NCBI RefSeq assembly: GCF_024223415.1
Contig: NZ_CP100500.1
DNA length: 64,000 bases
Strand: one strand, 5' to 3'
DNA from: Escherichia coli
GTDB lineage: Bacteria; Pseudomonadota; Gammaproteobacteria; Enterobacterales; Enterobacteriaceae
Shown: one piece after another, positions 13,753 to 34,756 of the stretch
How positions within the stretch are numbered: the stretch's first letter is position 1
Layout: the number at the start of each line of letters is the position of its first letter
The notes under the pieces: generated by a model
What the model saw: only the letters and a program-made list of their open reading frames with translations
Database searches by the model: none
Told to the model about the DNA's origin: nothing
Translations under genes and position numbers: made by a program

Positions 13753-14816
13753 AACAGGTTTGCGTCCTCGGTAACGGGCAGTTAGGCCGTATGCTGCGTC
13801 AGGCAGGCGAACCGTTAGGCATTGCTGTCTGGCCAGTCGGGCTGGACGCTGAACCGGCGGCGGTGCCTTTTCAACAAAGCGTGATTACCGCTGAGATCGA
13901 ACGCTGGCCGGAAACCGCATTAACCCGCGAGCTGGCGCGCCATCCGGCCTTTGTGAACCGCGATGTGTTCCCGATTATTGCTGACCGTCTGACTCAGAAG
14001 CAGCTTTTCGATAAGCTCCACCTGCCGACCGCACCGTGGCAGTTACTTGCCGATCGCAGCGAGTGGCCTGCGGTGTTTGATCGTTTAGGTGAGCTGGCGA
14101 TTGTTAAGCGTCGCACTGGTGGCTATGACGGTCGCGGTCAATGGCGTTTACGTGCCGATGAAACCGAACAGTTACCGGCTGAATGCTACGGCGAATGTAT
14201 AGTCGAGCAGGGCATAAACTTCTCTGGTGAAGTGTCGCTGGTTGGCGCGCGCGGCTTTGATGGCAGCACCGTGTTTTATCCGCTGACGCATAACCTGCAT
14301 CAGGACGGTATTTTGCGCACCAGCGTCGCTTTCCCGCAGGCCAATGCACAGCAGCAAGCGCAAGCCGAAGAGATGCTGTCGGCGATTATGCAGGAGCTGG
14401 GCTATGTGGGCGTGATGGCGATGGAGTGTTTTGTCACCCCGCAAGGTCTGCTGATCAACGAACTGGCTCCGCGTGTGCATAACAGCGGTCACTGGACACA
14501 AAACGGTGCCAGCATCAGCCAGTTTGAGCTGCATCTGCGGGCGATTACCGATCTGCCGTTACCGCAACCAGTGGTGAATAATCCGTCGGTGATGATCAAT
14601 CTGATTGGTAGCGATGTGAATTATGACTGGCTGAAACTGCCGCTGGTGAATCTGCACTGGTACGACAAAGAAGTCCGTCCGGGCCGTAAAGTGGGGCATC
14701 TGAATTTGACCGACAGCGACACATCGCGTCTGTCCGCGACGCTGGAAGCCTTAATCCCGCTGCTGCCGCCGGAGTATGCCAGCGGCGTGATGTGGGCACA
14801 GAGTAAGTTCAGTTAA
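13749..14816 (+). CDS. purK: N5-carboxyaminoimidazole ribonucleotide synthase
   Basis: 355 aa, ATP-grasp fold. Its ATGA start overlaps the purE stop. Confidence 0.97.
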
Positions 14817-14834: not shown

Positions 14835-14923
14835 GCCGGATGCGGCGTGAACGCCTTATCCGGCCTACACCGCTCCGGTACCCATTGTAGGCCTGATAAG
14901 ACGCGTCAAGCGTCGCATCAGGC
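14835..14923. repeat. REP/BIME element (two inverted REP units)
   Basis: GCCGGATGCGGCGTGAACGCCTTATCCGGCCTAC and GTAGGCCTGATAAGACGCG...GCATCAGGC are canonical REP palindromes. Confidence 0.9.
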
Positions 14924-20973: not shown

Positions 20974-20994
20974 TTATTGAGACAGGACTTTCTT

Positions 20995-22230
20995 ATGATT
21001 ACACATTTTCGTCAAGCCATAGAAGAAGCGCTGCCCTGGCTTTCCTCATTTGGCGCTGACCCAACGGGTGGGATGACCCGTTTACTTTATTCGCCGGAAT
21101 GGCTGGAAACCCAGCAGCAATTTAAAAAAAGAATGGCCGCAAGTGGGCTGGAAACACGTTTCGATGAAGTGGGGAATTTATACGGTCGCCTGAGTGGCAC
21201 CGAATATCCACAGGAAGTGGTTCTGAGCGGTTCGCATATCGATACCGTGGTTAACGGCGGTAACCTCGACGGGCAATTCGGCGCGCTGGCGGCGTGGCTG
21301 GCAATTGACTGGCTGAAAACTCAATACGGCGCACCGCTGCGTACGGTTGAAGTGGTGGCGATGGCGGAAGAAGAAGGCAGCCGCTTCCCGTATGTTTTCT
21401 GGGGCAGTAAAAATATCTTTGGGCTGGCGAATCCTGACGACGTGCGGAATATCTGTGATGCCAAAGGAAATAGTTTTGTCGATGCGATGAAGGCTTGCGG
21501 ATTTACTCTGCCGGACGCCCCGCTAACTCCGCGTCAGGATATTAAAGCCTTTGTCGAACTGCATATCGAACAGGGCTGTGTGCTGGAAAGTAATGGGCAA
21601 TCAATTGGCGTGGTGAATGCAATTGTCGGGCAACGTCGCTATACGGTGACGCTGAACGGCGAATCAAACCATGCAGGCACCACGCCGATGGATTATCGTC
21701 GTGATACGGTTTACGCTTTCAGTCGCATTTGCCATCAGTCGATCGAAAAAGCGAAAAAGATGGGCGACCCGCTGGTGCTGACCTTTGGTAAGGTGGAGCC
21801 GCGCCCGAATACGGTGAATGTGGTGCCGGGTAAAACCACGTTCACCATTGATTGTCGTCATACCGACGCCGCCGTGCTGCGTGATTTCACCCAACAGTTA
21901 GAAAACGACATGCGGGCGATTTGCGATGAAATGGACATTGGTATTGATATCGATTTATGGATGGACGAAGAACCCGTGCCGATGAATAAGGACCTGGTCG
22001 CCACCCTGACAGAATTGTGTGAAAGTGAAAAACTGAATTACCGGGTGATGCACAGTGGTGCCGGGCACGACGCGCAAATTTTCGCGCCTCGCGTGCCGAC
22101 CTGCATGATTTTCATTCCCAGCATCAATGGGATCAGCCATAACCCGGCGGAACGCACCAATATTACCGACCTTGCCGAAGGGGTCAAAACGTTGGCACTC
22201 ATGCTTTATCAACTTGCCTGGCAGAAATAA
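20995..22230 (+). CDS. allC: allantoate amidohydrolase
   Basis: 411 aa from MITHFRQAIEE, M20 peptidase family. Confidence 0.95.
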   Translation: MITHFRQAIEEALPWLSSFGADPTGGMTRLLYSPEWLETQQQFKKRMAASGLETRFDEVGNLYGRLSGTEYPQEVVLSGSHIDTVVNGGNLDGQFGALAAWLAIDWLKTQYGAPLRTVEVVAMAEEEGSRFPYVFWGSKNIFGLANPDDVRNICDAKGNSFVDAMKACGFTLPDAPLTPRQDIKAFVELHIEQGCVLESNGQSIGVVNAIVGQRRYTVTLNGESNHAGTTPMDYRRDTVYAFSRICHQSIEKAKKMGDPLVLTFGKVEPRPNTVNVVPGKTTFTIDCRHTDAAVLRDFTQQLENDMRAICDEMDIGIDIDLWMDEEPVPMNKDLVATLTELCESEKLNYRVMHSGAGHDAQIFAPRVPTCMIFIPSINGISHNPAERTNITDLAEGVKTLALMLYQLAWQK

Positions 22231-22237: not shown

Positions 22238-22249
22238 TAAATGGGATAT
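22238..22249 (+). repeat. left copy of the attachment core/target duplication TAAATGGGATAT
   Basis: Matches 33891-33902 (TAAAAGGGATAT) at 11 of 12 positions. GGGATAT is identical in both. Confidence 0.8.
22241..22249 (+). other. allE: orphaned first three codons of allE (ATG GGA TAT), cut off from the gene body by the satellite insertion
   Basis: The SD GGAG and ATGGGATAT follow the allC stop exactly as in the uninterrupted arrangement. Reading continues into island DNA and stops after 12 codons. Confidence 0.8.
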
Positions 22250-22322
22250 ATCTATAACTTATTTTCAATAAGGTATTGATTTAATTAAACAACTTACACT
22301 ACAAAAAGTGCCAAAAATCGCA

Positions 22323-22348
22323 AATTAACTACACCATTAACTACACCG
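22323..22348 (+). repeat. 26-bp island-internal direct repeat AATTAACTACACCATTAACTACACCG (itself a tandem ATTAACTACACC x2), left copy
   Basis: Identical copy at 33743-33768. Imperfect similarity extends about 50 bp further. Confidence 0.85.
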
Positions 22349-22645
22349 TTCGGCGCACTGTATGAAACAACGTGGAACAAATAGGCACAAGAAATATAAA
22401 GGCGGGTAATTTTAAGGGGGCGTTGCTGTCGATACGGGGATCCACATATCGAGATTGATACCTGGCTTTTTTTCCGGTTAACCTTTAATCAGGCTGGTGG
22501 GCTTTACCTGTTCTGTAGGAGTGGTCATTATGACCATTCAGCCAATGACCTTAATCAGAATTTTTCGCTAAAAAATGACGTTGGCCACGTCATCCGGAAA
22601 GCACAAAATCACGTCGATTTTTAATGGATGGTTAAACCGTCTTTT

Positions 22646-22681
22646 TGTCACGGTGTGTCACTGGTTGTCACGCTCTGTCAC
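22646..22681 (+). repeat. four TGTCAC motifs spaced exactly 10 bp apart
   Basis: TGTCAC starts at 22646, 22656, 22666 and 22676, so the copies are phased by one helical turn. Confidence 0.8.
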
Positions 22682-22693
22682 GATGTCCGGCCT

Positions 22694-23044
22694 CCTCACA
22701 TTGAGGATTGTGGAAGAATCAATGGGTTAGTCTTACTACCCAAACTACGGGTAGTTTCCGTAGTTTCATGGTCGAGTTGCAGATCTGCAACTCCCCCATC
22801 AACCACAGGCGAATTTCCGCCTTCGGTCATTCCTTAATCATCTGCGTAATCATAATGATTATTCAGCCACCTCAATTTTGAGGTTTGCTTTAAGTTCAGC
22901 GAGTTACCGCGCCGACTTCCTCAAATTGAGGTTTCCGAAAATATCAGTGGGTTAGCGATTAAGCTGACCATTAATTAAACTGCGAAAATTTCGTAGTTTG
23001 TGACTGTCTTTCAGGCAGCTTGTTATCAGTCCTCAGATGTGAGG
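22694..23044. promoter_or_regulatory. four dispersed palindromes CCTCA-N3/4-TGAGG
   Basis: Located at 22694-22706, 22870-22883, 22919-22931 and 23031-23044. A perfect 20-bp palindrome GAGTTGCAGATCTGCAACTC lies at 22774-22793. Confidence 0.7.
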
Positions 23045-23087
23045 GATGTAGCCAGCGCAATTTTGCGTTATCGGGAATATCAGCAAG

Positions 23088-23369
23088 TTACCGCCGTAAC
23101 CGTTCCGGCTTCTTCCACTGATAAGTGTTTTTCGCGCTCTCCTGATACATCGCCACGCGTCGACGGTATGCCAGCAACTCTAGTACTCTGATTCGTATGT
23201 CGCGCATATCCACGCCGTTAAGCTCAATACCATCACGGCGCATTACATCAGCAACAACACGCACGTAATTTTCGGCGATCACGCTGTCCGGCTGCGTGGC
23301 CTGTTCGTCATGCTGCTGGCTGATTCCGGTAACGCGGCGGATTAATCCCAGTAGTTCGGCTTCTGTCAT
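23088..23369 (-). CDS. hypothetical 93-aa satellite protein
   Basis: ATG preceded by GGGGGC. No family recognised. Lies just beyond the left cos copy. Confidence 0.55.
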   Translation of the reverse strand: MTEAELLGLIRRVTGISQQHDEQATQPDSVIAENYVRVVADVMRRDGIELNGVDMRDIRIRVLELLAYRRRVAMYQESAKNTYQWKKPERLRR

Positions 23370-23402
23370 TGTGCCCCCATCGCTCTGATAGTCTGGTGTC
23401 GT

Positions 23403-23466
23403 CGGGTCCTTCTGGAATTATGGCCCGTTACGGGGCGTCGACCTCGCGGTTTTTCGCTATTTATGA
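23403..23466 (+). repeat. lambda-type cosQ-cosN sequence, left copy (12-mer GGGCGTCGACCT at 23433-23444)
   Basis: CGGGTCCTT..GTTACGGGGCGTCGACCTCGCGGTTTTTCGCTATTTATGA matches the lambda cos junction ..GGGTCCTTTCCGG..GTTACG/GGGCGGCGACCT/CGCGGGTTTTCGCTATTTATGA (from memory). Confidence 0.8.
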
Positions 23467-23480
23467 GCTTTTTTAGAGGG

Positions 23481-23631
23481 AGGTTGTTGTTTAATTGTTT
23501 GTCATATCCATTTGATAACTAAGTAAAAATAAAGAGCAATACAACAACCTGATAGTGTTTTTTTGATGCTAAAAATAAAAAAATACTAATTGAATCAAAT
23601 AGTTTTAAAAAAATACGTGGTTGTTGTATTG
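23481..23631 (+). promoter_or_regulatory. cosB-like region: three GGTTGTTGT(A/T)TT sites in + - + orientation separated by A-tract DNA
   Basis: Sites at 23481-23497 (+), 23537-23550 (-) and 23618-23631 (+). Their order and orientation mirror lambda R3-R2-R1. Confidence 0.6.
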
Positions 23632-23661
23632 CGTATTTGATGGCGTAACAGAAAGTGATTT

Positions 23662-24102
23662 TTAACTTTGCTGTTCTGTAACGACTGATTGTTCCATGCT
23701 GGCACGGCGAACGCTTACGGCATGACGCCACCCAGCCAGAAAGCCAGCCATTTTATTTCGTGCCTTGCTCACATCTTCCGGTGAATAGCCGTAAATATGC
23801 AAACCTTCATCAAATCGCTGTTCTGTTTCTTCACTGAAATACTCGTCGCGCTCTGACGCAATCAACCTGGCAACCATAATCTTTTCCAGTGCGCTGGTTT
23901 CTCCGTGGTACTCAATAGCATCAAGATGGCTTTTACCCATGCACCAGAATAATGTGTGTCCGATGTGATAACCGCCGGACTTTCCGCGATCCGCATCAAG
24001 ATATGGCATGCCCTGTTTGGTCCATGCGCGAATAGTGGTTCTGTTGACCTTGAAATGTTCTGCTATTTCCTGCTGACTCACAAAACAAGCTTTATCAATC
24101 AT
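23662..24102 (-). CDS. Nu1-like winged-HTH protein (small-terminase N-domain homologue; candidate packaging-redirection protein)
   Basis: VSQQEIAEHFKVNRTTIRAWTKQGMPYL aligns with lambda Nu1 VNKKQLADIFGASIRTIQNWQEQGMPVL. The C-terminal half is unrelated to Nu1. Confidence 0.7.
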   Translation of the reverse strand: MIDKACFVSQQEIAEHFKVNRTTIRAWTKQGMPYLDADRGKSGGYHIGHTLFWCMGKSHLDAIEYHGETSALEKIMVARLIASERDEYFSEETEQRFDEGLHIYGYSPEDVSKARNKMAGFLAGWRHAVSVRRASMEQSVVTEQQS

Positions 24103-24169
24103 AATGTTACCTTAATCATGCGATTAAATGTTAATCAAGTGGTGGTGGTGTCACCTTCACGGAAAAACG

Positions 24170-24234
24170 TCATAAATAGCGAAAACGCGCGAGGTCGACG
24201 CCCCGTAACGGGTCCACATGCCGGAAAGGACCCG
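24170..24234 (-). repeat. lambda-type cosQ-cosN sequence, right copy, inverted (12-mer at 24192-24203)
   Basis: The reverse complement CGGGTCCTTTCCGGCATGTGGACCCGTTACGGGGCGTCGACCTCGCGCGTTTTCGCTATTTATGA matches the left copy and lambda cos. Confidence 0.8.
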
Positions 24235-24235
24235 C

Positions 24236-24258
24236 AAAAAAAGCCGGATTTCTCCGGC
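24236..24258 (-). terminator. intrinsic terminator after orf137
   Basis: On the minus strand, the GCCGGAGAAATCCGGC hairpin is followed by a U7 run, 7 nt after the stop codon. Confidence 0.8.
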
Positions 24259-24264
24259 CTTGTC

Positions 24265-24678
24265 TCAGATGGTTTTCAGTATGCGATCGATGTCGCCGTC
24301 ATCGCCCTGGTTTGTGCCATCGTATGCCATGCCAGCTGATACGGCTTTCGGGCTGTGCATGTCCATAAAGTTTTCAAAGGCTGAAGTAAGCTCTGGTGCA
24401 ACCTTCGGGCGTTCCTGCTCTATGGTCATGCTAAGGATGCTTTTAGCCGTACCAACATCGATACAAGGCACGTTAGCCATTGCACGTAACAGCGGCTGGT
24501 AGTCGTCAGATTCATGAAGCGCCATAATCGCATCAGCGCGCGGCTTGTCCTGTTCTTCCAGTTTGTTGAGTCGGTGTATGGCCTCGTAGGTTGATAAACC
24601 TCTGTCAGCCATTGCCCGCGCTTCGGCTTTAAATTTACTCGCCAGCGGTAGCTTCATGATACTTTCATTCGTTGCCAT
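24265..24678 (-). CDS. hypothetical 137-aa head-module protein
   Basis: Strong SD AGGGGGAA. Tightly packed after the decoration gene. No family recognised. Confidence 0.6.
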   Translation of the reverse strand: MATNESIMKLPLASKFKAEARAMADRGLSTYEAIHRLNKLEEQDKPRADAIMALHESDDYQPLLRAMANVPCIDVGTAKSILSMTIEQERPKVAPELTSAFENFMDMHSPKAVSAGMAYDGTNQGDDGDIDRILKTI

Positions 24679-24690
24679 CGTTCCCCCTGC

Positions 24691-25026
24691 TTATCGTGCC
24701 AGCGGCTGAACGGATACGCCGGAACCCGCAAAGGCGGCGCATTTTTTCGCATCGGTGTCGACGCTATCAGGCCAGTTAACGGCGGCAATATTGAATATCC
24801 CCGTTTTGTAACACTGTGCTGATTTCTGCTTTGACGTGTCCACGGGGTGCGAAGTCAGATAAACAGCTTTGCCAGATTCCTGACCATCCCACGCCTTAAA
24901 CTCGCCATTGTCTGCCAGCATCAGCGGGGTAAATTCCTGAATAACGCCAGCATCAGCGGCAAAATGTACCAGCGTCGTGGATACCTGCTGGCTGCCTGAA
25001 AATAACTCAATGTATGGAGCGTCCAT
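24691..25026 (-). CDS. head decoration protein, lambda gpD-like
   Basis: 111 aa. TPLMLADNGEFKAWDG and KKCAAFAGSGVSV align with gpD TPLMLDTSSRKLVAWDG and KKRTAFAGTAISIV. Confidence 0.8.
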   Translation of the reverse strand: MDAPYIELFSGSQQVSTTLVHFAADAGVIQEFTPLMLADNGEFKAWDGQESGKAVYLTSHPVDTSKQKSAQCYKTGIFNIAAVNWPDSVDTDAKKCAAFAGSGVSVQPLAR

Positions 25027-25037
25027 AGAATCCCCCG

Positions 25038-26093
25038 TTAAGCAATTTTGACGGTAACAAATTTGCGAATATCTGCCGGTACCGGCTGCGGTGCGCTGTG
25101 CGTCTGCACGTACTCAATCGCCGGATCGCCGTCCTCAATCCAGTTTTTCGGGTAGTACATGTTTTGCGTTGCGCCCGTTCTTACCGCTTCCTGATCCATA
25201 ATCGCACCATATGCCACCAGCCCTTTATTGTTGGTGTTACCCAGGACCAGCAAATCAGGCTCAAGGAAATATTTTTCGGTGCCGTCGCTGTCAGTGTATT
25301 TGCCGGAATAGACGATAAGGGCCAGATCACCAAGATAGCCTTTAAAGCTCACCACTTCGCCCAGGTTTTTACAGGCCAGCTCGGCGGCGGATTCTGACCC
25401 ACGGGAAAGATCGTACAGTTCACGGAATTTTTTAAAGCTGCGTAATGTGCGCCATACCTCACCGCCCATAATCATGACGTTGGCGGGGCAACCTGCCTGA
25501 TCAGCATAAAGCTCGATGTCATAGATTGGGTCGTGCATGTCTTTATCCTGCTGGGACCATTTTTTACCACTGGCCTGCTGTATGATGCAGTTTTCCGGTA
25601 TTTTCCAGTCGATTTCATAGCGTTCTATGCCTTCGCCCTCAATGATGTTTTTTCCGGTCGTTACCGCATTCACCGCCAGCCATTCAACACGCGCTTTAAT
25701 GGCGTTTACCTGGCGGCGCATGTTGCCAGTAATCAGGCGCATACGGCGATAGGTTGGGTCGTTAAGCTGTGCCGGATCTTCTCCAGCCATGCGCATGATG
25801 GTCTTTGTTGGATCGATTTCGTGCTTTGGCTTCATGTAGCCTGGTTTAATCGTGCTGGTTTCGTACCCTTTATCGCGCTGGACCTGACTACCCACCATAG
25901 GAGAACAGAACGCAGACATCGTAACCTCTTCAATGTCCAGGGTGTCCAGCATGATGTTTTGGGTGTTGAAGGTCGCCACGTTCGGGAAAAACAGCGTGGT
26001 AAACAGCGGACTAAATTTAAATTCCGAAATATCCCCGCGATTCAGGTACGCGAAAAGCTGGTTAGTTGTAAGTGCCGTTGCTTTGCCTGTCAT
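25038..26093 (-). CDS. major capsid protein, lambda gpE family
   Basis: 351 aa. KFSPLF, PGYMKPKHE, YPKNW and HSAP align with gpE KFDPLF, PGYVKPKHE, YPKNW and QSAP. SD GGAGGTG, with a TAATG overlap with the upstream ORF. Confidence 0.9.
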   Translation of the reverse strand: MTGKATALTTNQLFAYLNRGDISEFKFSPLFTTLFFPNVATFNTQNIMLDTLDIEEVTMSAFCSPMVGSQVQRDKGYETSTIKPGYMKPKHEIDPTKTIMRMAGEDPAQLNDPTYRRMRLITGNMRRQVNAIKARVEWLAVNAVTTGKNIIEGEGIERYEIDWKIPENCIIQQASGKKWSQQDKDMHDPIYDIELYADQAGCPANVMIMGGEVWRTLRSFKKFRELYDLSRGSESAAELACKNLGEVVSFKGYLGDLALIVYSGKYTDSDGTEKYFLEPDLLVLGNTNNKGLVAYGAIMDQEAVRTGATQNMYYPKNWIEDGDPAIEYVQTHSAPQPVPADIRKFVTVKIA

Positions 26094-26299
26094 TATTCAC
26101 CTCCGTGAACCTGATTGATACCCAGCGCCGCACGTAAATAGGTGCGCACCTGCCAGCCTGTTGACGGCTCAACCATCGCCAGCGGATCAAGTCCTGCCGC
26201 AATGCCTGCTTTTACATTCTGCTGGTGGCGTTCCTTGAGCGCCTCCACGATGTCGGGGCTTATGTAGACCGTCACCCCGCCTTTTTTCTCTTCTGCCAT
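26093..26299 (-). CDS. hypothetical 68-aa protein, first gene of the capsid operon
   Basis: Translationally coupled to the capsid gene. No family recognised. Confidence 0.55.
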   Translation of the reverse strand: MAEEKKGGVTVYISPDIVEALKERHQQNVKAGIAAGLDPLAMVEPSTGWQVRTYLRAALGINQVHGGE

Positions 26300-26332
26300 A
26301 GTCAGAAATTCCTCTTTGACTTAAAAAATCAT

Positions 26333-26383
26333 AACTGGATGTTCATCCAGTCCTGATTATAATCATGATTGCATTTTGTGCAA
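26333..26383 (-). promoter_or_regulatory. sigma70 promoter of the capsid operon (TTGCAC-16-TATAAT) with an overlapping LexA-like palindrome
   Basis: On the minus strand, the -35 is at 26378-26383 and the -10 at 26356-26361. AACTGGATGTTCATCCAGTC (26333-26352) has CTG-N10-CAG and starts 5 nt after the -10. Confidence 0.6.
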
Positions 26384-26466
26384 TAATGTTGAGTTGTGTT
26401 GCAAATTATGAAATGATTATCCCGATCATGTGTGTCAGTGCACCATAAAAAACCTCGTATACAAAA

Positions 26467-26504
26467 GCCCGATAAGCCCCCTGTGACCTTATCGGGCTTT
26501 TTTT
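26467..26504. terminator. hairpin GCCCGATAAG..CTTATCGGGC with T7 on the plus strand and UUUUGU on the minus strand (bidirectional)
   Basis: 10-bp stem flanked by A/T runs. Confidence 0.7.
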
Positions 26505-26510
26505 AGGCGT

Positions 26511-26532
26511 AAAAAAGCCGGATTGCTCCGGC
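26511..26532 (-). terminator. intrinsic terminator after the PerC-like gene
   Basis: On the minus strand, the GCCGGAGCAATCCGGC hairpin is followed by U6. Near-identical to the terminator at 24236-24258. Confidence 0.8.
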
Positions 26533-26539
26533 TGTGTGC

Positions 26540-26812
26540 TCACTTCTGCGGGTAGTTGCGCCATATTGCTTTGCCAATACCAGCTATCCCCATTTGTTTT
26601 TCAGTGCGATTAACTGACCTTTTCAGAGCGCCTAAATCATCCGGCGGCTCCGGTGGCCTCTGTGCCTTCCGTGAACATTCCAGCCGTCGCATTGCCACCT
26701 GTGCGCGTTCCTTGTCTGTCTCCACCAGCATCATCACTTCACCCCATCGCGCGGCCGCCCTCCGGTAAAATCCTTTCGCCTCCAGTTCCTCCGCTATCCG
26801 GTCATGTACCAT
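26540..26812 (-). CDS. PerC/Pch-family transcriptional activator-like protein
   Basis: 90 aa from MVHDRIAEELEAKGFYRRAAARWGEVM, with SD GAGGGGG. The motif resembles PerC-family A..LE..GLWRRAA.RW (from memory). Confidence 0.55.
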   Translation of the reverse strand: MVHDRIAEELEAKGFYRRAAARWGEVMMLVETDKERAQVAMRRLECSRKAQRPPEPPDDLGALKRSVNRTEKQMGIAGIGKAIWRNYPQK

Positions 26813-26822
26813 CGTCACCCCC

Positions 26823-27233
26823 TCAGAACGGAATATCATCACCGTAAGGGTCATCGCCTCCCGCTGGTGGCTGATTACCCTGTGTGCCTGTGGTTTTGCG
26901 TCTGTTCCCGCCAGGACGTGCCGCACGGGCACTGATTACGCTGTCTGCGATGACCTGCCAGCCCTGCCGCGTTTCGCCGTTCTGGCCTGTCCACTGGCTT
27001 ACCTGCATGTTACCCGCCACGCTCACCAGTTCGCCTTTGTGGTGTCTGGCCAGTGCGTCGGCCTGTCTGCCAAACGCCAGGACGGATAACCACATCGTCG
27101 CCGTTCCGTCATCTGCCTGGCTGCATGGCAGGGGAACCGCCATACTCGCCATCGCCATTTGTGTCCCTTTGCTGGTCTGTTTTGTCTGCGGGTCGTCCAC
27201 CAGCCGCCCGTAAGCCGCTATCTGTGCTGTCAT
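26823..27233 (-). CDS. ssb: single-stranded DNA-binding protein
   Basis: 136 aa with an OB-fold-like N-terminus, a Gly/Pro-rich linker and the canonical acidic tip DDIPF. Confidence 0.85.
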   Translation of the reverse strand: MTAQIAAYGRLVDDPQTKQTSKGTQMAMASMAVPLPCSQADDGTATMWLSVLAFGRQADALARHHKGELVSVAGNMQVSQWTGQNGETRQGWQVIADSVISARAARPGGNRRKTTGTQGNQPPAGGDDPYGDDIPF

Positions 27234-27487
27234 GCTGTCTGCTCTCCGGTTTTAACATTGATGGTTGTCACCTGTTCCGCTCCGGCAATCTCCCGCTCTG
27301 TCAGCGTGGCAAAGTTTGCCGCCGTCGTTGTCATGAATGCGCTTATCAGTTCGGGATGTGCTTTCGCGTATCCTTCCCCCGTGTTGCGGTCGATGATTTT
27401 TATCGCCACCCTCAGCCAGTGCTCTGTAAGGTCAATGGCGCGGTTATGTGATTTCTTCTGATTGTTAAATTTTTCTGATGTGTGCAT
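27230..27487 (-). CDS. hypothetical 85-aa protein
   Basis: ATGA overlap with the ssb start. No family recognised. Confidence 0.5.
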   Translation of the reverse strand: MHTSEKFNNQKKSHNRAIDLTEHWLRVAIKIIDRNTGEGYAKAHPELISAFMTTTAANFATLTEREIAGAEQVTTINVKTGEQTA

Positions 27488-27534
27488 TTTTATTTTTACC
27501 CCCTCGTTTAAAAAGTTTTGAGTTGTGGTGCACC

Positions 27535-27760
27535 TCCTCTACCTCTCTACACAATCATCTTTCAGGTCAGTAATGGCGCGGCTTTCAGCGGGGTAGAGGG
27601 CTTTTTTGGCCCTCTACCCGCCATCTACCACCCCCTCACAAATGCCCTGAATTATGGTAGAGGGTGTAGAGGGCTTTTAAGTACCTTCTACCTGCCATCC
27701 ACCCAATCTATCCACATGAAATATATGTAATTATTTTCTTAAGGTAGAAGGGGTAGAGGG
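27535..27760. repeat. iteron array, at least 10 copies of (G/T)GTAGA(G/A)GG in both orientations; candidate satellite replication origin
   Basis: Includes GGGTAGAGGGC-ttttttg-GCCCTCTACCC (27590-27618), GGTAGAGGGTGTAGAGGGC (27655-27673) and GGTAGAAGGGGTAGAGGGC (27742-27760). Lies directly downstream of the primase-helicase gene. Confidence 0.7.
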
Positions 27761-27773
27761 CTTTTGTCTAAAA

Positions 27774-29522
27774 CTATAAAAACGCGTCGCAGTCGTCTGT
27801 TGTTGTCACGTTGGTTTGCGTAAACCCTTTAATCCTGCGCGTTATATATTCATGACCGTAAACTTTCGCCGCTGGCTTCATGGCCTTGCTGAACTCAGCC
27901 ACGTTCAGCGGTTTGCTCCTGCCTGCATACGCCATAAACGCCAGATAGACGCGGTAAAGGCTGTTTCTGGTCGTGTACTTCACTGAATCGCCACCGCCGC
28001 CCATCATCAGGCCACGTGCTTCCTCCAGAAAATTCAGGAACTGGCAAAACTCAATAACCGGATCCGTCTGTTGCTTTATTGCCAGAGCTTCATCACCGTC
28101 TCGCTGTTCAATGAGTAAAGCCCGTGCCTTTTCAGGGTCGGCAAAGTTCGCCAGCAAGCGGCGGATAATGACAGGGATTTCAGCCGCGATCTTTTCCGGT
28201 AGCTCCCTGTCTTTTTCTGCCTCGCTTACGATGTTATCGAACCGGAATATCACCCGACGACGTGACACGCCTCCTGCCCGTTCGGTGAATATCATCGGGT
28301 TATTATTGGTTGCCAGCACAACCGCCCTGATTACCGCCGTGAATCGCTTTTCATATTTCGGGTTGATTTCCACGGGGTCGCCGCCCGTGATTTTCTTGAT
28401 GCCCGTTCCTTCGCCTGTATATTTCGGCTGGTCTGCCAGGACAATAAGCCTACTCCCGACAACCTGCGCACGCCCACCAGCATCATCAAGCGATGTCATC
28501 TCAGCGCTTACCGTGTTCTGTTTCCCTGCCAGAAGGCTGGCTATGTGTGTGAATGTACTTTTACCGCTCCCGCCGTCTCCGGTGGCCTCAATAAACATCT
28601 GCCAGTCGTACCGGTTCGCCATAATCATGTACAGCGCGGCACATATACGCATCATCTTGCGCGGGTCTTTTCCGGCAGCGTGATCAAGCCATTTATGAAA
28701 GTTTGGCGCGTTGTCGCGGATATTCTCACCTGGTACTGGCGGCGTGTACTCAATGCCGTTGTGTGTGGTGATCCAGTTCTCCGGCGTGTGCGGGGAAAAT
28801 TCCCCCGTTTTCAGGTCAAGCGCACCATTGGCGAACGGCAGCAAATCGCCGGACGGCTCGCCCATTGGTTCGGCAATAACTTTTAACGCTTCCACGGCGT
28901 TACTGATTACGCGCTTGCTGAAAGTGGCCCTGTGCTCTGAATAGATCGCCACCATTTCGCGGCTCAGTTCCATTGTGCTGACCGGACACCATACCCCGCC
29001 GCGCCATACGTGAACGATTTCACTTTCCAGATGCACACAAACGCCATCAAATCGACCAGCAAGCATCTGTGCGCGCTCACTGTCTGCCATTTGTGCCAGT
29101 TGCGTATTTTTCTGCTCCGGCATGGTAAGCCCTGCGGCAATATTTTCACGCTCAGCATTCAGATAGCGCCGCCAGTTTTCACACTTCTGACCGTGCATTC
29201 CTTCAGAGTAAAAATTCGCATCCTGAATATCTGCCGCCGCCAGCTTCTGACCAATCTTTTTGGTCTCCACTAAATCCAGTTCTCCGGCCTGGTACAGCCT
29301 TACGCGTTTTTTTCCATCCGGAACAATTTTCAGCGCATCAAGTTCAGCAAGCTGATTTGGCCCAAGCCACACAGGCGGCACATTATCGCCGGATGCGGGA
29401 CCGTCCTTCTCCTGCCACTGTTGTGCATGCGACCAGGCATCACTACCCGCAAAGATAATTACCTCTGTGTCTTTGTGTTTTATTCCGCGTGGCTGTTTTT
29501 TTACGTTCGGTGCCAGTTTCAT
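27774..29522 (-). CDS. P4-alpha-type primase/SF3 helicase (replication initiator)
   Basis: 582 aa with Walker A GDGGSGKST and a D5_N/P4-family C-terminal layout. Confidence 0.85.
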   Translation of the reverse strand: MKLAPNVKKQPRGIKHKDTEVIIFAGSDAWSHAQQWQEKDGPASGDNVPPVWLGPNQLAELDALKIVPDGKKRVRLYQAGELDLVETKKIGQKLAAADIQDANFYSEGMHGQKCENWRRYLNAERENIAAGLTMPEQKNTQLAQMADSERAQMLAGRFDGVCVHLESEIVHVWRGGVWCPVSTMELSREMVAIYSEHRATFSKRVISNAVEALKVIAEPMGEPSGDLLPFANGALDLKTGEFSPHTPENWITTHNGIEYTPPVPGENIRDNAPNFHKWLDHAAGKDPRKMMRICAALYMIMANRYDWQMFIEATGDGGSGKSTFTHIASLLAGKQNTVSAEMTSLDDAGGRAQVVGSRLIVLADQPKYTGEGTGIKKITGGDPVEINPKYEKRFTAVIRAVVLATNNNPMIFTERAGGVSRRRVIFRFDNIVSEAEKDRELPEKIAAEIPVIIRRLLANFADPEKARALLIEQRDGDEALAIKQQTDPVIEFCQFLNFLEEARGLMMGGGGDSVKYTTRNSLYRVYLAFMAYAGRSKPLNVAEFSKAMKPAAKVYGHEYITRRIKGFTQTNVTTTDDCDAFL

Positions 29523-29818
29523 TTTTTACCCCTGAATACGTTAAGCATCTTTTTTATTTCCTGAATATTGGCGCGTGCTTTCTCCCTGCTGGTTGGTTTA
29601 CTGCGGGGCGCTGCCTGTACCAGAGAAAAATCACGCCGGAACTGATAAACAGGCATCACGCAATCATATTCGTAGCCTTCACGGCGGTAAGTGATGCGCC
29701 GTTCCTCCACGCCTTTAATCGTTACCGTGCCGCCGTACTGGTCGCGGTAAATATCGCCGTTCATAAATTCAGGCCGAGCGGGGCCGCTGGCATTAACGCC
29801 AGTATTTTTCATTCCCAT
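29519..29818 (-). CDS. hypothetical 99-aa protein
   Basis: ATGA overlap with the primase start. Basic C-terminus. Confidence 0.55.
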   Translation of the reverse strand: MGMKNTGVNASGPARPEFMNGDIYRDQYGGTVTIKGVEERRITYRREGYEYDCVMPVYQFRRDFSLVQAAPRSKPTSREKARANIQEIKKMLNVFRGKK

Positions 29819-29822
29819 ATAA

Positions 29823-30065
29823 TTAAATTCCGTTTGTGTGGTGTTTTAATTCGTCAATTTTTTCTAATGCTTTGTTTATCTTGCTGGTGGAAATATCCAG
29901 CAATTCAGAAATAGCAAATATAAGTCTTGCCGTTGATTCATCTCTTTCGTTGTTTGACAGCAATTGAAACCACACGTTTGTAATTTCAATTGCCGAATTA
30001 TTATAGGTTATTGCACTGTTCATGTATTCCGACACCTCTGCAAGCGAAAGTTTATTATTCTCCAT
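29823..30065 (-). CDS. hypothetical 80-aa protein (AT-rich)
   Basis: Predicted helical, with markedly lower GC than its neighbours. Confidence 0.5.
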   Translation of the reverse strand: MENNKLSLAEVSEYMNSAITYNNSAIEITNVWFQLLSNNERDESTARLIFAISELLDISTSKINKALEKIDELKHHTNGI

Positions 30066-30246
30066 AACGTTCTACCCTCTCATCAATTAACCACAGTGCA
30101 ACACTTCCTGACAGTCTTGCCAGAAGGCCAGCTAATGCGGATATATCATCATCATTTAATTTATTAGGGTACGCTTCAAGAAGTCTGCAAATAATTTCGG
30201 TTTGGTGGGCGCGTTCAGCGGCTTCGTGTAATGTAATTTCCTTCAT
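30055..30246 (-). CDS. hypothetical 63-aa protein (AT-rich)
   Basis: Overlaps the next ORF by 11 nt. Confidence 0.5.
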   Translation of the reverse strand: MKEITLHEAAERAHQTEIICRLLEAYPNKLNDDDISALAGLLARLSGSVALWLIDERVERYGE

Positions 30247-30431
30247 TAATGCACCTCTTTTAATTCATACACTGCTGAAATAATGACTTGTGATAAGCCA
30301 TATTCTGATGATTCGCTTCTCACCGCAGCAATAGCCGTCTGAACATTAACAGCCTTCACATTCTGAGCGATACCAATTGTGTGGCCTAGTGGGTTAACAG
30401 CTCGGGCAAATACACGGAAGGTTTTAAGCAT
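30246..30431 (-). CDS. hypothetical 61-aa protein
   Basis: Its start overlaps the upstream stop, and its own stop overlaps the next start by 1 nt. Confidence 0.5.
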   Translation of the reverse strand: MLKTFRVFARAVNPLGHTIGIAQNVKAVNVQTAIAAVRSESSEYGLSQVIISAVYELKEVH

Positions 30432-30789
30432 GGCGCACCCCCTGAATAACCTGATATCCGCAACTGGTCAGCAATTCGATAAATTCCGGCAGAGTGCCAA
30501 AACAGCAATCAGTGCGTAGCTGTTCGCAGGATACCTCAACGCCGTTTTCGTAATGGCTCACTATGCGCCCGGTAAAATGCGGATCATCATCGTGATGGCA
30601 CGTTGACGGTTTCATCAGCCGCGCGCGTTCCGCCAGTTCCAGCAATGCTTCAACGCTTCCGGCAATTGCACCATCCGGCAGGTGATAATTACTTACTACG
30701 CGTCCATTCTCTACATTGACCAGTAGCTGTCCGGTAAATTTCTCACGAAACTGAACGCGGTTAAGATCGGTAAGTGACAGGTTAATCAT
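30424..30789 (-). CDS. hypothetical 121-aa protein
   Basis: Start MINLSLTDLNR, chosen because ATGATTAA overlaps the upstream stop codon. Confidence 0.55.
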   Translation of the reverse strand: MINLSLTDLNRVQFREKFTGQLLVNVENGRVVSNYHLPDGAIAGSVEALLELAERARLMKPSTCHHDDDPHFTGRIVSHYENGVEVSCEQLRTDCCFGTLPEFIELLTSCGYQVIQGVRHA

Positions 30790-30979
30790 GGCACACCTCC
30801 TGACGAATACGGGCGGCGAATACAGCGACACAACCGGACGGGCAACGGTTACGCGCTTCGCGTTCTGTCCAGGCGGTCACGTGGATAATTTGAGATTCTC
30901 CGGCACTCAGTGCCAGAAAACGCCACACAAAGGCGGTTTGTGTGTGCGCAAGGCGTGGGGTATGCTGTGTTCCAGCCAT
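30782..30979 (-). CDS. small Icd-like (P4-family cell-division-inhibitor-like) protein
   Basis: 65 aa MAGTQHTPRLAHTQTAFVWRFLALS...TEREARNRC...FAARIRQE, with SD GAGGT. The family call is from memory of P4-like prophage annotations. Confidence 0.4.
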   Translation of the reverse strand: MAGTQHTPRLAHTQTAFVWRFLALSAGESQIIHVTAWTEREARNRCPSGCVAVFAARIRQEVCHD

Positions 30980-31070
30980 AATCGTTACCTCAATTAATGG
31001 TTTGGTTAGAAGCCCGTTGGTGTTCATAGCGCCAGCGGGCTTTGTCTTTTCATCGATTACCTCAATAAAG

Positions 31071-31151
31071 GTGTCAGCCACTATACTAGTAACAGGTGTC
31101 AGCCACGTCAATAGTGTTTTTCCATTTTCTTGTGTGTATACTGTCAGCCAC
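31071..31151. promoter_or_regulatory. divergent control region with three (G/C)TGTCAGCCAC repeats interleaved with TATACT -10-like hexamers
   Basis: Copies at 31071-31081, 31096-31106 and 31141-31151. TATACT at 31082-31087 and 31137-31142. Confidence 0.65.
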
Positions 31152-31172
31152 CTAATAACAAGGAAATCAGAT

Positions 31173-31352
31173 ATGGCAACGAAAGCAGTTAATGGAAAAT
31201 CCAAAAAACTTGAGGCACGAGTCCCCCATGCAATAGCTGACGCTTTAGAAAATTTAAAGGAAGAAGGCGAAAGCACTGGGCAATTTATCGTTTCGGCACT
31301 TGAAGGCGAGATCAAACGCCGCCAGCGCCGGAAGGCCAAAGAATCAGAATAA
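31173..31352 (+). CDS. ribbon-helix-helix (Arc/MetJ/CopG-like) DNA-binding protein, candidate satellite repressor
   Basis: 59 aa. KKLEARVPHAIADALENLKEEGESTGQFIVSALEGEIKRRQ fits a beta-strand/helix/helix pattern. Divergent from the early operon. Confidence 0.6.
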   Translation: MATKAVNGKSKKLEARVPHAIADALENLKEEGESTGQFIVSALEGEIKRRQRRKAKESE

Positions 31353-31409
31353 TCACTATCAGCGCCGTGGTGTGAGGTACTGCGGCGCATTGTTTTAAAG
31401 GTGATAATT

Positions 31410-31601
31410 ATGAATAACCAAGAACTACAAAATAAAGCATTATCAATTATCATGCGCCAGCGTGAGAAAACCCGCAGGGAAATAAATAAGGCATTAACCC
31501 GCACTGAAAATCTTAAAGTTCCTGATAAGTTCGCCCTTGATCCTTTTGTCGAGAAATACCCTCGGCGCTTAAAAGCAAACAAAAACCGCCCACCTGGCTG
31601 A
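31410..31601 (+). CDS. hypothetical 63-aa basic protein
   Basis: ATG with SD AAGGTG. Followed by an intrinsic terminator. Confidence 0.5.
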   Translation: MNNQELQNKALSIIMRQREKTRREINKALTRTENLKVPDKFALDPFVEKYPRRLKANKNRPPG

Positions 31602-31635
31602 CAATCCACCAGCAAGCCAGGACACTGATCACATT

Positions 31636-31663
31636 GGCCACCGTGACAGGTGGCCTTTTCTTT
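31636..31663 (+). terminator. intrinsic terminator of the rhh operon
   Basis: GGCCACC-gtgaca-GGTGGCC followed by TTTTCTTT. Confidence 0.8.
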
Positions 31664-31716
31664 GCCCGTTATCCGGCAATTGTGGCGCTTCGCCACACGG
31701 TTGATATAATCCCACT

Positions 31717-31787
31717 GCTCATATTCATTTTTTGCGCAGTAGGTTAATTGTTCAGAAAGGCGGCTCCTTATCGGGGCCGCTTTTTTT
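31717..31787 (+). ncRNA. candidate ~70-nt small RNA, antisense to the alpA-early operon transcript
   Basis: An extended -10 TGATATAAT (31702-31710) lies upstream of an 8-bp-stem hairpin plus T7 (31760-31787). There is no credible plus-strand CDS between them. Confidence 0.35.
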
Positions 31788-31928
31788 ATGTCTGAAAAAC
31801 CGCGATTTTGTTGTTTTTCAGTTTCACAAGGCCGAACGAAGCCCCGCCCCTGTTCGGGCGTATATCCAGTCTTCATGGTTAAATCTCTGTATTAGTGGAT
31901 GGGTGGCGGCTGTGTGCCGCCAGTCTTT

Positions 31929-32117
31929 TTAGTGAACTGCCTCGCAGCTTTCCTTCCATGCCAGAACTTCGGATAAAGACCAGCCAACGGAACGACCGCC
32001 CAGCTTACGCCGTGATGGGAATTGTCCGGCCTTTTCCAGGCGGTAGCGGCATGAGCGGCTAAGCCCTGTTAGCTTTTCGCATTCTTTTTCACGTATAAAC
32101 CGATCAGTGCTTAACAC
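31929..32117 (-). CDS. alpA: AlpA-family HTH regulator/excisionase-like protein
   Basis: 62 aa, GTG start with SD AAAGGGGG. The LTGLSRSCRYRLEKAGQFPSRRKLGGRSVGWSLSEVLAW motif is typical of AlpA. Confidence 0.85.
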   Translation of the reverse strand: MLSTDRFIREKECEKLTGLSRSCRYRLEKAGQFPSRRKLGGRSVGWSLSEVLAWKESCEAVH

Positions 32118-32409
32118 TATTGCCCCCTTTCGTTTCTTAAAGAGTTATTTCGTGTTCTATTGCGTTGGTATGTGTCTGATTGTGTCAGGGTGATTCAGAG
32201 TTGGCAAATGTTGGTGGCGGGTATTTTACAGAAACGGGGTTATTTTAATAAAAAACATTTTAATTCAGTATTATGCAAAGGCATAAAATCTCGTTTTATG
32301 CCTTTTTTCTCACTATTTAAAGCGTTATTCGCTAATGTATAAAAAACCAGTTGAGCATTAAAAATCAGCAACTTATAAATCTGTATACTTTTTGGCCTCT
32401 TGTTCGTGG

Positions 32410-32443
32410 TTGTTTCACGTTGTTGCGTATTGTTTCACGTTGT
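32410..32443 (+). repeat. two direct copies of TTGTTTCACGTTGT, 20 bp apart
   Basis: The same 13-mer family occurs inverted near both island ends (22364-22379 and 33787-33800). Confidence 0.75.
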
Positions 32444-32491
32444 ATCTGTGCACTTATCCAGTATGCGCATACTGAAAAAACACGAAAAAAA

Positions 32492-33742
32492 TTATTTTCT
32501 TCTGGTTACTGGTAGCGTGGTTACGTTTTCATGTGCTCCCGCCAGTATCTCCAACCGCTCCACCCACATATCCAGCGCATTGCGTTTCGCATCCAGATAA
32601 CGGGAATGATTATAAACTCGCTGCATTCCTGGCATCTGGTGGCCTGTAAGCTGCTCCACGACGTGAGGATCCACGCCTAAATCGTTCAGCATCGTTGTAA
32701 AGGTGCGCCGGATGTCATGCAGTGACCAGTGAGGGTGTTTAAGCCTCCTGTGCGCTAATCTTCCATACTGCGATACGCTGGCCTCCTGTTTCACTTCCCC
32801 CAGCAATAAGCCCGTGTGCCTGTTCTGCTCCACCAGCTGCGTGACGAACGGCAGTATCGCTTCCGGTATGGGCCGGAATATGGCTACCTTCGTTTTGCTG
32901 TGCTCCTTCGGAACGGTCCATAGCATTTCGGTAAAATCCCACTCCCCGATCTCCGATAGCCTCAGTTCTACTGTCCTGGCTCCGAAGACAATCAGGAGGC
33001 GGATTAGTGCGACGTAGTAAGGGGAAAATATTTTTTTGTCCAGTGCCTGCAATAATTCGCCAAGTTCTTTGTTACTTAAGACACGCTGACTTATATCCGG
33101 TTTTTTCCCAACGTCAGCAACACTCATATCATCAAGAACGTTGCTGATTGCATAGCGCCGCTTCCGGCAGAACTTAAGCGCCTGTTTGCATGTCTGTAGC
33201 AGGAATCCGGCGGAAACAGGGGCTTGCTTTGCCACCCGATCAAAACAGGCCAGCCAGTGCCGTAGCTCGCATTTATCCAGCGGCATAGCACCAATCTGCT
33301 GTATTACGTGATTATTAAGTCGCCTTTTCAGGGCGATATAATCCACGCGGTTTTCCTTTACGTAATACTCAAGCCAGTAGGTAAGCGCATCGCCAACCGT
33401 TACAGGCTTTAACGCTTCCTGTACGGTGTAATTCATCTCATGACGTGGATTTTTCCCCTCAGCCAGCCATGCGCGGCACTGTGCGGCTTTTTCCCTGGCT
33501 GCTTTCAGGCTCAGATCAGGATAATTTCCCAGCTTAATCCGTTCCGGTCGTGCTCCCCTTCCCGTTCCGGCCCTGTAGGTGAAATACCAGGTTAAAAGGC
33601 CGCTGGTTGAATGCCTGACGGTCAGGTTTCCACCGTCATTAAGAAAGACTGTTTTTTGGGCGGGTGTGCCGTTGATTTTCCTTAGCTGTGTATCGCTCAG
33701 TTTGTTAAGTGCTCTGCGCATAATTTTGATTCCGGTCATCAC
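32492..33742 (-). CDS. int: P4-family tyrosine integrase
   Basis: About 410 aa with catalytic HDIRRT...GH...Y motifs. Adjacent to the right attachment site. The start is ambiguous (GTG 33742, ATG 33739 or the ATG of MRRALNKL). Confidence 0.9.
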   Translation of the reverse strand: MMTGIKIMRRALNKLSDTQLRKINGTPAQKTVFLNDGGNLTVRHSTSGLLTWYFTYRAGTGRGARPERIKLGNYPDLSLKAAREKAAQCRAWLAEGKNPRHEMNYTVQEALKPVTVGDALTYWLEYYVKENRVDYIALKRRLNNHVIQQIGAMPLDKCELRHWLACFDRVAKQAPVSAGFLLQTCKQALKFCRKRRYAISNVLDDMSVADVGKKPDISQRVLSNKELGELLQALDKKIFSPYYVALIRLLIVFGARTVELRLSEIGEWDFTEMLWTVPKEHSKTKVAIFRPIPEAILPFVTQLVEQNRHTGLLLGEVKQEASVSQYGRLAHRRLKHPHWSLHDIRRTFTTMLNDLGVDPHVVEQLTGHQMPGMQRVYNHSRYLDAKRNALDMWVERLEILAGAHENVTTLPVTRRK

Positions 33743-33768
33743 AATTAACTACACCATTAACTACACCG
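33743..33768 (+). repeat. right copy of the 26-bp repeat, immediately upstream of the integrase start
   Basis: Identical to 22323-22348. Candidate integrase arm-type or RDF binding site. Confidence 0.85.
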
Positions 33769-33890
33769 ATCGTTGCACAAAGGGCTACAACGTGAAACAA
33801 GCTGGAACAAGAAAAATCACAAATTTGTTTATAATCAAAAACATAATGCACAACCTGAAACATTATGAAACGGCAAAAAACACTAATTGA

Positions 33891-33902
33891 TAAAAGGGAT
33901 AT
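33891..33902 (+). repeat. right copy of the attachment core TAAAAGGGATAT
   Basis: See the left copy. The allE reading frame resumes inside this repeat. Confidence 0.8.
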
Positions 33903-34679: not shown

Positions 34680-34721
34680 GTCATACCACTCGCCTGATTA
34701 TTTTTAGCTATGTTGGATTTT

Positions 34722-34748: not shown

Positions 34749-34756
34749 GTAACATT

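Follow-up and report, generated by a model that had tools for sequence, protein, structure and literature searches.

Putative Roi-type operators paired with IHF consensus sites in the non-coding arm of an Escherichia coli satellite island

Described systems and the int-distal arm

The closest described counterpart of the DNA reported here lies inside the roi gene of phage HK022, where a short palindrome is followed, after about 11-18 bp, by WATCAANNNNTTR, the consensus of integration host factor (IHF). Clerget and Boccard are said to have reported in 1996 that HK022 Roi binds a site inside its own gene by an IHF site, and that IHF stabilises this binding; we found no restatement of that site in open papers. 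The same composite is present in the non-coding arm at the integrase (int)-distal end of a phage-inducible chromosomal island (PICI) of Escherichia coli. We analysed this arm within a 64,000-nucleotide stretch of contig NZ_CP100500.1 (RefSeq assembly GCF_024223415.1), and "the window" refers to that whole stretch. Our preferred reading, held with modest confidence, is that the arm functions as duplex DNA that presents an array of putative protein-binding sites. Its main unit would combine a Roi-type operator with an IHF site, and would serve as a docking or decoy site for the Roi protein of a helper phage.

The roi alleles of Shiga toxin (Stx) phages show direct DNA homology to the arm modules (80-94% over 45-50 bp), and some PICI arms contain the palindrome of the HK022 class, CCTGCATTGCAG(G). 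Phage roi holds one copy, in coding sequence, whereas the satellites hold 1-5 non-coding copies per arm, often of mixed classes, and no roi. The late promoters Psid and PLL of satellite P4, bound by P2 Ogr and P4 Delta, are similar in being satellite cis sites for a helper regulator, by which the satellite is coupled to the cycle of its helper. However, the P4 sites have the form TGT-N12-ACA and lie upstream of defined promoters, whereas the arm sites have no evident promoter, are arrayed and IHF-paired, and fall into many specificity classes. In the P arm of lambda attP and in the R3-I1-R2 part of lambda cosB, IHF sites are likewise interleaved with protein sites near att or cos, and a bent nucleoprotein complex is built there. 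Unlike these composite sites, the arm modules are independent of integrase and att type, are distinct from the cosB-like sites of the island, and are separated by 340-750 bp from cosN and by 440-840 bp from the att core.

The RIP/RIB type of bacterial interspersed mosaic element (BIME) of E. coli also couples repeated extragenic palindromes to an IHF consensus. We rejected an element of this kind: no match to the repetitive extragenic palindrome (REP) sequence GCCKGATGCGRCG with up to 2 mismatches was found in 22250-23100. As a positive control, the flanking chromosome gave pairs of GCCGGATGCGGCG and GCCTGATGCGACG at 14835-14923 and 62374-62459. In the searchable PICI papers there is no mention of the arm, of IHF or of the palindromes, and the non-coding end on the orf93 side is not discussed; the element appears undescribed. 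Each of its parts has precedents: operators, IHF sites, and satellite sites that respond to a helper, of which the P4 late promoters are an example. What seems new is their arrangement, as allele-diverse arrays of the internal control site of a helper gene, placed in non-coding satellite DNA.

The island is a PICI of the Rpp/cos type, of the EcCICFT073 kind (PMC6092414, PMC6739421), because it carries int, AlpA, a D5 primase with iterons, an RppC homologue, two cosN sites and non-lambda cosB sites. A first-pass annotation of the window had marked 22575-23100 as non-coding and repeat-dense. That description held, and the non-coding arm proved to be larger than the region marked:

22250..23087, no strand: int-distal non-coding arm, bounded by the island end and the orf93 stop codon
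23088..23369, minus strand: orf93 (phrog_1561), 93 aa, adjoining the arm as the last gene before the int-distal end

As the annotation had also held, no credible protein-coding gene lies in this region. Small open reading frames (ORFs) of 69, 57, 51, 44 and 63 aa were rejected as genes: they had no PHROG match, none was conserved at full length in related arms, and their similarity to other arms was partial and frame-independent. In the closest relative, strain Ch1, the RefSeq annotation of the arm shows nothing. An Rfam scan of the arm gave manA as its best match (19.7 bits vs a gathering threshold of 55.2, E=0.23), and no promoter-like sequence was found in the arm.

The palindrome and IHF module and its counterpart in roi

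At least five distinct repeat systems had been proposed for the arm. We observed that all of the listed motifs lie where they had been placed and are far above chance, and that they are not all independent. The palindromes CCTCA-N3/4-TGAGG are at 22694, 22870, 22919 and 23031 (N3 form, 2 matches vs 0.03 expected). TCAGC(G/A)AGTTACCGC occurs twice, at 22896 and at 23080, and we also saw both pairs, TGGGTTAG and CGTAGTTT. What had been counted as separate systems, the CCTCA palindromes and the duplicates TCAGCRAGTTACCGC and TGGGTTAG, proved to be the two parts of a single module (module B). In this module of ~45 bp, a dyad-symmetric palindrome of 13-16 bp is followed by 10-11 bp and then by the IHF consensus WATCARNNNNTTA. 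Thus a CCTCA-type palindrome is followed, 10-11 bp on, by (A/T)TCA(A/G)NNNGTTA, the sequence to which TCAGCRAGTTACCGC and TGGGTTAG correspond. The arm in the window contains four copies:

22687..22732, plus strand: module B copy 1, palindrome TCCTCACATTGAGGA at 22693-22707, 10 bp, IHF core AATCAATGGGTTA at 22717-22729
22865..22910, plus strand: module B copy 2, palindrome ACCTCAATTTTGAGGT at 22869-22884, 10 bp, degenerate IHF-like core GTTCAGCGAGTTA at 22894
22912..22957, plus strand: module B copy 3, palindrome CCTCAAATTGAGG at 22919-22931, 10 bp, core TATCAGTGGGTTA at 22942-22954
23050..23095, plus strand: module B copy 4, palindrome GCGCAATTTTGCG at 23055-23067, 10 bp, core TATCAGCAAGTTA at 23078-23090, which overlaps the orf93 stop codon

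Compared to WATCAANNNNTTR, the core AATCAATGGGTTA is perfect, TATCAGTGGGTTA and TATCAGCAAGTTA are one position off, and GTTCAGCGAGTTA is two off. The relaxed consensus WATCARNNNNTTA has 7 matches in the window vs 1.8 expected, of which 3 are in arm modules and 1 is beside the att core. The spacers of the modules (GAAAATAT or GGAAGAAT) supply the A/T-rich stretch sought 5' of an IHF core. When cassettes were anchored on the palindrome and no core was required, information peaked at TCAR and at GTTA and was low between them. By consensus match, the module core is a putative IHF binding site.

We assembled 44 non-redundant PICI arms. Modules numbered 52 in 27 of them, all in one orientation with 0 on the other strand (0.065 in shuffles). 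The spacing from palindrome to core was 10-11 nt in 43/52 modules, and the palindrome centre was 1-2 nt in 44/52. A symmetric centre of 1-2 nt suits a dimeric protein on duplex DNA, and not an RNA or DNA hairpin. The palindromes varied in a compensated manner with constant flanks (CCTCA/TGAGG, GCGCA/TGCGC, CCCCC/GGGGG, CTGCA/TGCAG, CAGCC/GGCTG, CCACAG/CTGTGG). The palindrome of copy 2, for example, is replaced by AGCGCAATTTTGCGCT in other arms, in the same place and with the same flanks, a compensated change. Perfect palindromes overall (stem at least 6, centre up to 2) numbered 182 in the 44 arms vs 26.8 in shuffles, a 7-fold excess.

Arm-like sequence was present in 1577/5426 complete E. coli genomes as a mosaic; the whole arm was present in two genomes only, and copy 3 was its most widespread part. 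Rather than lacking the repeats, related PICIs carried them as shuffled pieces. These pieces occupied the same terminal position in Rpp-type islands, in islands with an annotated small terminase, in capsid-forming islands (large terminase) and in helper-embedded islands, and the PICIs sharing them differed in integration site. In some arms three modules stand 54 bp apart (L014, 1750-1915; L199, about 1030-1165; L247), and the palindromes of these triplets represent the three main roi classes, one each: CCTCAAATTGAGG, CCCCCAATGGGGG and CCTGCATTGCAGG. A pattern scan covering one genome per species gave one genuine extra match, in Xenorhabdus, the rest being chance matches. It lies in a small, integrative, satellite-like element of Xenorhabdus ehlersii with genes for an Ash-family protein, a DUF927 protein and an integrase. 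Three tandem modules with further palindrome variants stand at the int-distal end of this element (L396, 478-730). They have the same orientation relative to the element, though the neighbouring gene points the opposite way. The module architecture therefore reaches beyond Escherichia.

We searched 50,697 phage records and obtained essentially a single phage match: window positions 22686-22735 were 90-94% identical to nt 122-171 of roi. This Rha/KilAC "antirepressor" gene lies between the replication genes and Q in Stx and other lambdoid phages (for example, L002 2380-3102, with the element at nt 122-171 of the gene, and L008 6656-7381). Copy 3 was 82% identical to roi over 44 bp, and copies 2 and 4 shared the architecture only. 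A degenerate module pattern matched at least 120 viral stretches; among the matches listed, 110 were in roi, 9 were in orf93-carrying loci and 1 was in a PICI arm, so that outside roi the listed matches lay in satellite arms only. A decayed roi pseudogene was rejected as the source of the arm: the Roi alignment spans no more than 22 residues, and it is one 45-bp piece that recurs.

Third-codon entropy across 69 unique roi alleles of one protein class was ~0.02 over the palindrome, spacer and core (codons 44-55) vs ~0.4 and ~0.9 in the flanks. Residues 20-62 are exactly where HK022 roi departs from the Stx type, yet its palindrome, CCTGCATTGCAG, and its perfect IHF core occupy unchanged nucleotide positions despite the different peptide. 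The roi element is under constraint at the DNA level and is more than coding sequence.

The palindrome class tracked a variable motif of the Rha domain in 54/54 unique roi alleles. The motif KRHDNVKRTIE pairs with CCTCAAATTGAGG, SRHDNVKRAIE with CCTCCAATGGAGG and SRHDKVKQSIE with CCCCCAATGGTGG, while SRPDNVK(I/V)SIE and the HK022 motif SRHSNVKVSID pair with CCTGCA(T/A)TGCAG. The satellite cassettes mirror this allelic diversity, spacers included. In the CCCCC class the palindrome is perfect in the PICI copy and imperfect in the roi coding copy, which points to selection for dyad symmetry itself.

In the mechanism we favour, IHF would bend each module, and the palindrome beside it would be occupied by a dimeric Roi-type protein (Rha winged helix) that the helper encodes. 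After helper induction or infection, replicated satellite DNA would dock or titrate the Roi of the helper, with different palindrome classes serving different helper alleles. The preferred consequence is a decoy or sensor that would modulate the interplay of helper and satellite, or an effect on int and recombination in the excised circle. Binding by IHF and by Roi, including that of Roi to the palindrome itself, is predicted here, as is its consequence. PMC4587872 refers to Roi as a DNA-binding protein.

Several points weigh against this proposal. We found no roi gene within the 64-kb window, and the arm palindrome classes GCGCAATTTTGCGC, CAGCCGTTGGCTG and TTCCACAGTCTGTGGAA were found in no roi allele sampled. 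The association of Roi motif with palindrome class could reflect linkage in one gene segment, not recognition. Lambda, a working helper of EcCICFT073, is not known to carry roi. A plasmid-borne reporter of alpA expression was activated in induced lambda and phi80 lysogens, and over-expression of AlpA alone led to excision and replication without a helper (PMC6092414). Plasmids with cos1 only were packaged when RppA was supplied (PMC6739421). Induction and packaging, and with them the core life cycle, can therefore do without the arm, and excision and replication can do without helper proteins. The arm is unlikely to be a site on which replication or packaging depends, and a modulatory, helper-specific role (decoy, sensor or int control) fits best.

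Among the roles that the first-pass annotation had offered, a platform for sensing helper proteins is the only one that gained evidence, the main module being homologous to the cis element of roi. Its view that the arm motifs are distinct from both the origin iterons (GGTAGAGGG, 27592-27760) and the cosB-like sites (GGTTGTTGT, 23482-23627) was borne out. The region is best read as protein-binding DNA, in line with the further DNA-binding activity that it had suggested. We also put forward, tentatively and as a possibility that we rate well below the docking or decoy function, a multi-allelic DNA "sponge" at the int-distal end of E. coli PICIs and of at least one Xenorhabdus satellite. Tandem non-coding copies of the Roi/IHF operator, taken from different roi alleles of helper phages, would here capture helper Roi together with host IHF once the satellite has replicated, and so sense or disarm any lambdoid helper that is present.

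Competing explanations

Of the other explanations, an extended attP or regulatory arm survives best, and we consider it unlikely. In this case the N-domain of the satellite Int, AlpA (as directionality factor), the PerC-like protein, the orf93 product and IHF would bind the arm and shape recombination or int control. The sites that bear on it are:

22269..22281, minus strand: IHF consensus by the attachment core, AATCAATACCTTA matching WATCARNNNNTTA
22323..22348, plus strand: two 12-bp ATTAACTACACC direct repeats, candidate Int arm-type site, with a partner at 33743-33768 beside int
22646..22681, plus strand: four (T)GTCAC direct repeats in 10-bp phase

The arm abuts the att core, which has the IHF site beside it and ACTACACC repeats on both sides (22323-22348 and 33743-33768, outside the region first marked). 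The island ends share a 26-bp exact repeat inside an imperfect repeat of ~75 bp, and the geometry of an attP arm makes the ATTAACTACACC repeats candidate Int arm-type sites. By their coordinates, orf93, the arm and int are co-oriented in the excised circle, where the arm is directly followed by int on the same strand. Relative to int, the arrangement in the Xenorhabdus element is the same.

The phased GTCAC array resembles arrays to which factors of the Xis/Cox type bind. Its four TGTCAC motifs had been annotated at an exact spacing of 10 bp, as we also observed, and GTCAC-N5-GTCAC-N5-GTCAC has 2 overlapping matches in 64 kb vs 0.01 expected. Conservation of the array, with 4-5 copies, extends to 11/44 arms, in which its position varies. 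It is associated with att arms of the ACTACACC type (P = 0.014, Fisher test, uncorrected for relatedness) and lies 310-510 bp from the ACTACACC repeats. As an array for a directionality factor it is only a lead, since its distance from the core varies. We found no GTCAC repeats near the alpA promoter.

Module B itself fits an attP arm poorly. It was equally common whether or not an arm had the ACTACACC att type, and its distance from the core exceeds that of usual arm sites. The module palindromes run through ten or more classes while orf93 stays >80% identical. No Rha-type protein turned up in Pfam and PHROG scans of the island, and no promoter-like sequence was seen in the arm. We rejected the orf93 product as the arm binder, given its conservation while the palindromes vary and its AlphaFold2 model, which is all-helical (pLDDT 70) with no significant PDB fold match.

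A role in RNA is rather improbable. The arm would be the 3' untranslated region of the late operon, and cassettes antisense to roi would pair with helper roi mRNA, or hairpins would stabilise or terminate the transcript. We observed no minus-strand terminator between orf93 and the arm, and every cassette of the E. coli arms is antisense to roi relative to late-operon transcription. The parallel between cassettes and roi alleles extends to the spacers. Predicted folding of the arm was strong (z = -6.9), but the opposite strand folded equally well (z = -7.1); strong folding is no argument for RNA, because palindrome-rich DNA folds so on either strand. The dyad symmetry runs into a centre of 1-2 nt that an RNA loop could not use, and the PICI copies are more perfectly palindromic than their would-be roi target. 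In addition, 2/4 cassettes in the window have no in-frame roi counterpart, the neighbouring gene in Xenorhabdus is oppositely oriented relative to the cassettes, and the best Rfam match (manA) was at noise level. The structured RNA locus suggested in the first-pass annotation is thus not supported.

Recombination debris is distinctly improbable. Here, fragments of phage and satellite genes would have gathered at a recombination-prone end and been kept as stuffer for packaging length. Mosaic pieces are indeed shuffled among PICI types, arms range in length from about 330 to 900 bp, and other PICIs carry accessory genes at this position. Debris would not account for the 7-fold palindrome density over shuffles, nor for uniform module orientation, fixed spacing and compensated palindrome changes. 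Only the 45-bp site-bearing piece of roi is contributed, and repeatedly, and the same architecture recurs in Xenorhabdus.

Hairpins or cruciforms recognised by their structure, for example as IHF-assisted signals for lagging-strand priming in satellite replication, are very unlikely. The stem sequences vary freely with complementarity preserved, and the island encodes its own primase-helicase and SSB. However, stems of 5-8 bp with centres of 1-2 nt are too short for stable hairpins or cruciforms, and the match to the Roi motif classes would be left unexplained.

A second cis-replication region or a partition centromere, both raised in the first-pass annotation, is hardly credible: the arm is repeat-dense non-coding DNA far from the origin, as is P4 crr, but P4 crr repeats the origin iterons, whereas here the iterons GGTAGAGGG are confined to 27592-27760 and absent from the arm, Pfam and PHROG scans of the island ORFs gave no partition protein family, and the arm has many kinds of repeat, not one iterated site.

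Other sites of the arm, the island and their meaning

Apart from module B, the GTCAC array and the att-end sites, the arm contains the following features:

22522..22536, no strand: palindrome TGGTCATTATGACCA followed by TTCAG (module A), with a compensated variant, TAATCATAATGATTA, at 22847-22861
22575..22593, no strand: palindrome ATGACGT-N5-ACGTCAT, conserved in some arms (for example, L010)
22626..22650, plus strand: terminator-like hairpin GGATGGTTAAACCGTC with a T-run, facing transcription incoming from the chromosome
22742..22766, no strand: palindrome AAACTACGGGTAGTTT with an extra GTAGTTT half-site, in 10 arms
22774..22793, no strand: perfect 20-bp palindrome GAGTTGCAGATCTGCAACTC with a central GATC
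22976..22998, no strand: near-palindrome AAACTGCGAAAATTTCGTAGTTT, a perfect 23-bp palindrome in other arms
23031..23044, no strand: orphan palindrome CCTCAGATGTGAGG, lacking an IHF core at the module spacing, recurring in several other arms

The 20-bp palindrome and ATGACGT-N5-ACGTCAT are present as first annotated. Exact matches in IMG/VR lay up to 1.5 kb from an orf93 homologue in 65/69 cases for the 20-bp palindrome and in 26/29 for TGGTCATTATGACCA. The 20-bp palindrome, TGGTCATTATGACCA/TAATCATAATGATTA, AAACTACGGGTAGTTT and ATGACGT-N5-ACGTCAT were absent from 970 kb of phage DNA around 110 roi genes. The GTCAC array and these other palindromes are probably additional binding sites for proteins. 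In other arms the terminator-like hairpin is kept directly upstream of the GTCAC array. Several conserved arm palindromes centred on GATC (CAGATCTG, GGGGATCCCC) occur at 22774-22793 and at other loci (for example, L013 1517-1532); because GATC is at the centre, Dam methylation could influence their binders.

Repeats resembling ACGTG(A/G)AACAA occur in both att arms (22362-22380, 33790-33815) and near the int 3' end (32400-32450), and may be further recombination or regulatory sites. Palindromes containing AACTAC were rejected as additional Int sites, as they showed no clear association with att type. We also rejected a second cos site in the arm (22430-22475, weakly cos-like): the second lambda-like cosN is at 24187-24206, across rpp.

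The gene adjoining the arm, orf93, has 957 homologues, all named hypothetical, and a homologue almost always adjoins arm pieces. In capsid-forming PICIs it follows the large terminase gene. A tblastn search with orf93 against a genome-contig collection gave no match. A preprint on capsid-forming PICIs (cf-PICIs) describes a hypothetical gene, 1792, whose loss severely reduces transfer and which might be the orf93 homologue.

The island measures 11.6 kb (22250-33895) and is set between allC (20977-22230) and a cupin gene (33954-34679). Its limits were drawn from alignment with the strain Ch1 relative and from a 7-bp duplication, GGGATAT, on both flanks (22243-22249 and 33896-33902). The Ch1 relative, 93-96% identical, lies in tqsA and is flanked by TGCTGTTAT (L001, ~13950-13960 and 25605-25615). 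The same island type therefore uses different targets and overlap sequences. Island features include:

23430-23449 (plus strand) and 24187-24206 (minus strand): pair of inverted lambda-like cosN sites on either side of the RppC homologue
23482-23627: three cosB-like sites GGTTGTTGT, to the right of the first cosN only
32492-33742, minus strand: integrase with an arm-binding domain

The RppC homologue is at 23662-24102 and matched PDB 6hlk (E=1.7e-32), and the two inverted cosN fit the cos1/cos2 pair reported for EcCICFT073. If the cos at 23430 is active, coordinates and lambda biology suggest that the arm and orf93 would be the last DNA packaged. Profile scans identified AlpA, and the island also encodes a D5-type primase-helicase followed by the iterons, SSB, a PerC-like protein, and lambda-type capsid and decoration proteins. 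In a 364-aa open frame (30782-31876, minus strand) matches to known families (repressor or Icd-like PHROGs) are confined to the final 60-90 residues, and the frame is probably not a single gene, because the Ch1 annotation shows several short genes there. Two Rfam matches to small RNAs are chromosomal, past the cupin gene and ~0.8 kb outside the int end of the island: STnc480 (34686-34752, minus strand, 87.6 bits) and ES036 (34778-34820, minus strand, 38.1 bits).

Work on Gram-negative PICIs has so far centred on proteins (AlpA, Rpp and capsid genes). If the arm docks a helper regulator, it would add a cis-acting layer to the ways in which satellites read and manipulate their helpers. The Roi/Rha proteins of lambdoid and Stx phages, which are poorly understood, would gain a definite function, and the palindrome class would be a sequence signature that may predict the helpers of a satellite. 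The arm together with orf93 is a practical marker of the int-distal boundary of these islands. Satellites aside, roi genes hold an embedded, allele-specific cis element, which bears on the regulation of Stx prophages. If the arm is in fact a sponge for Roi, satellite and helper would interact through decoy DNA, and not through a satellite protein or RNA.

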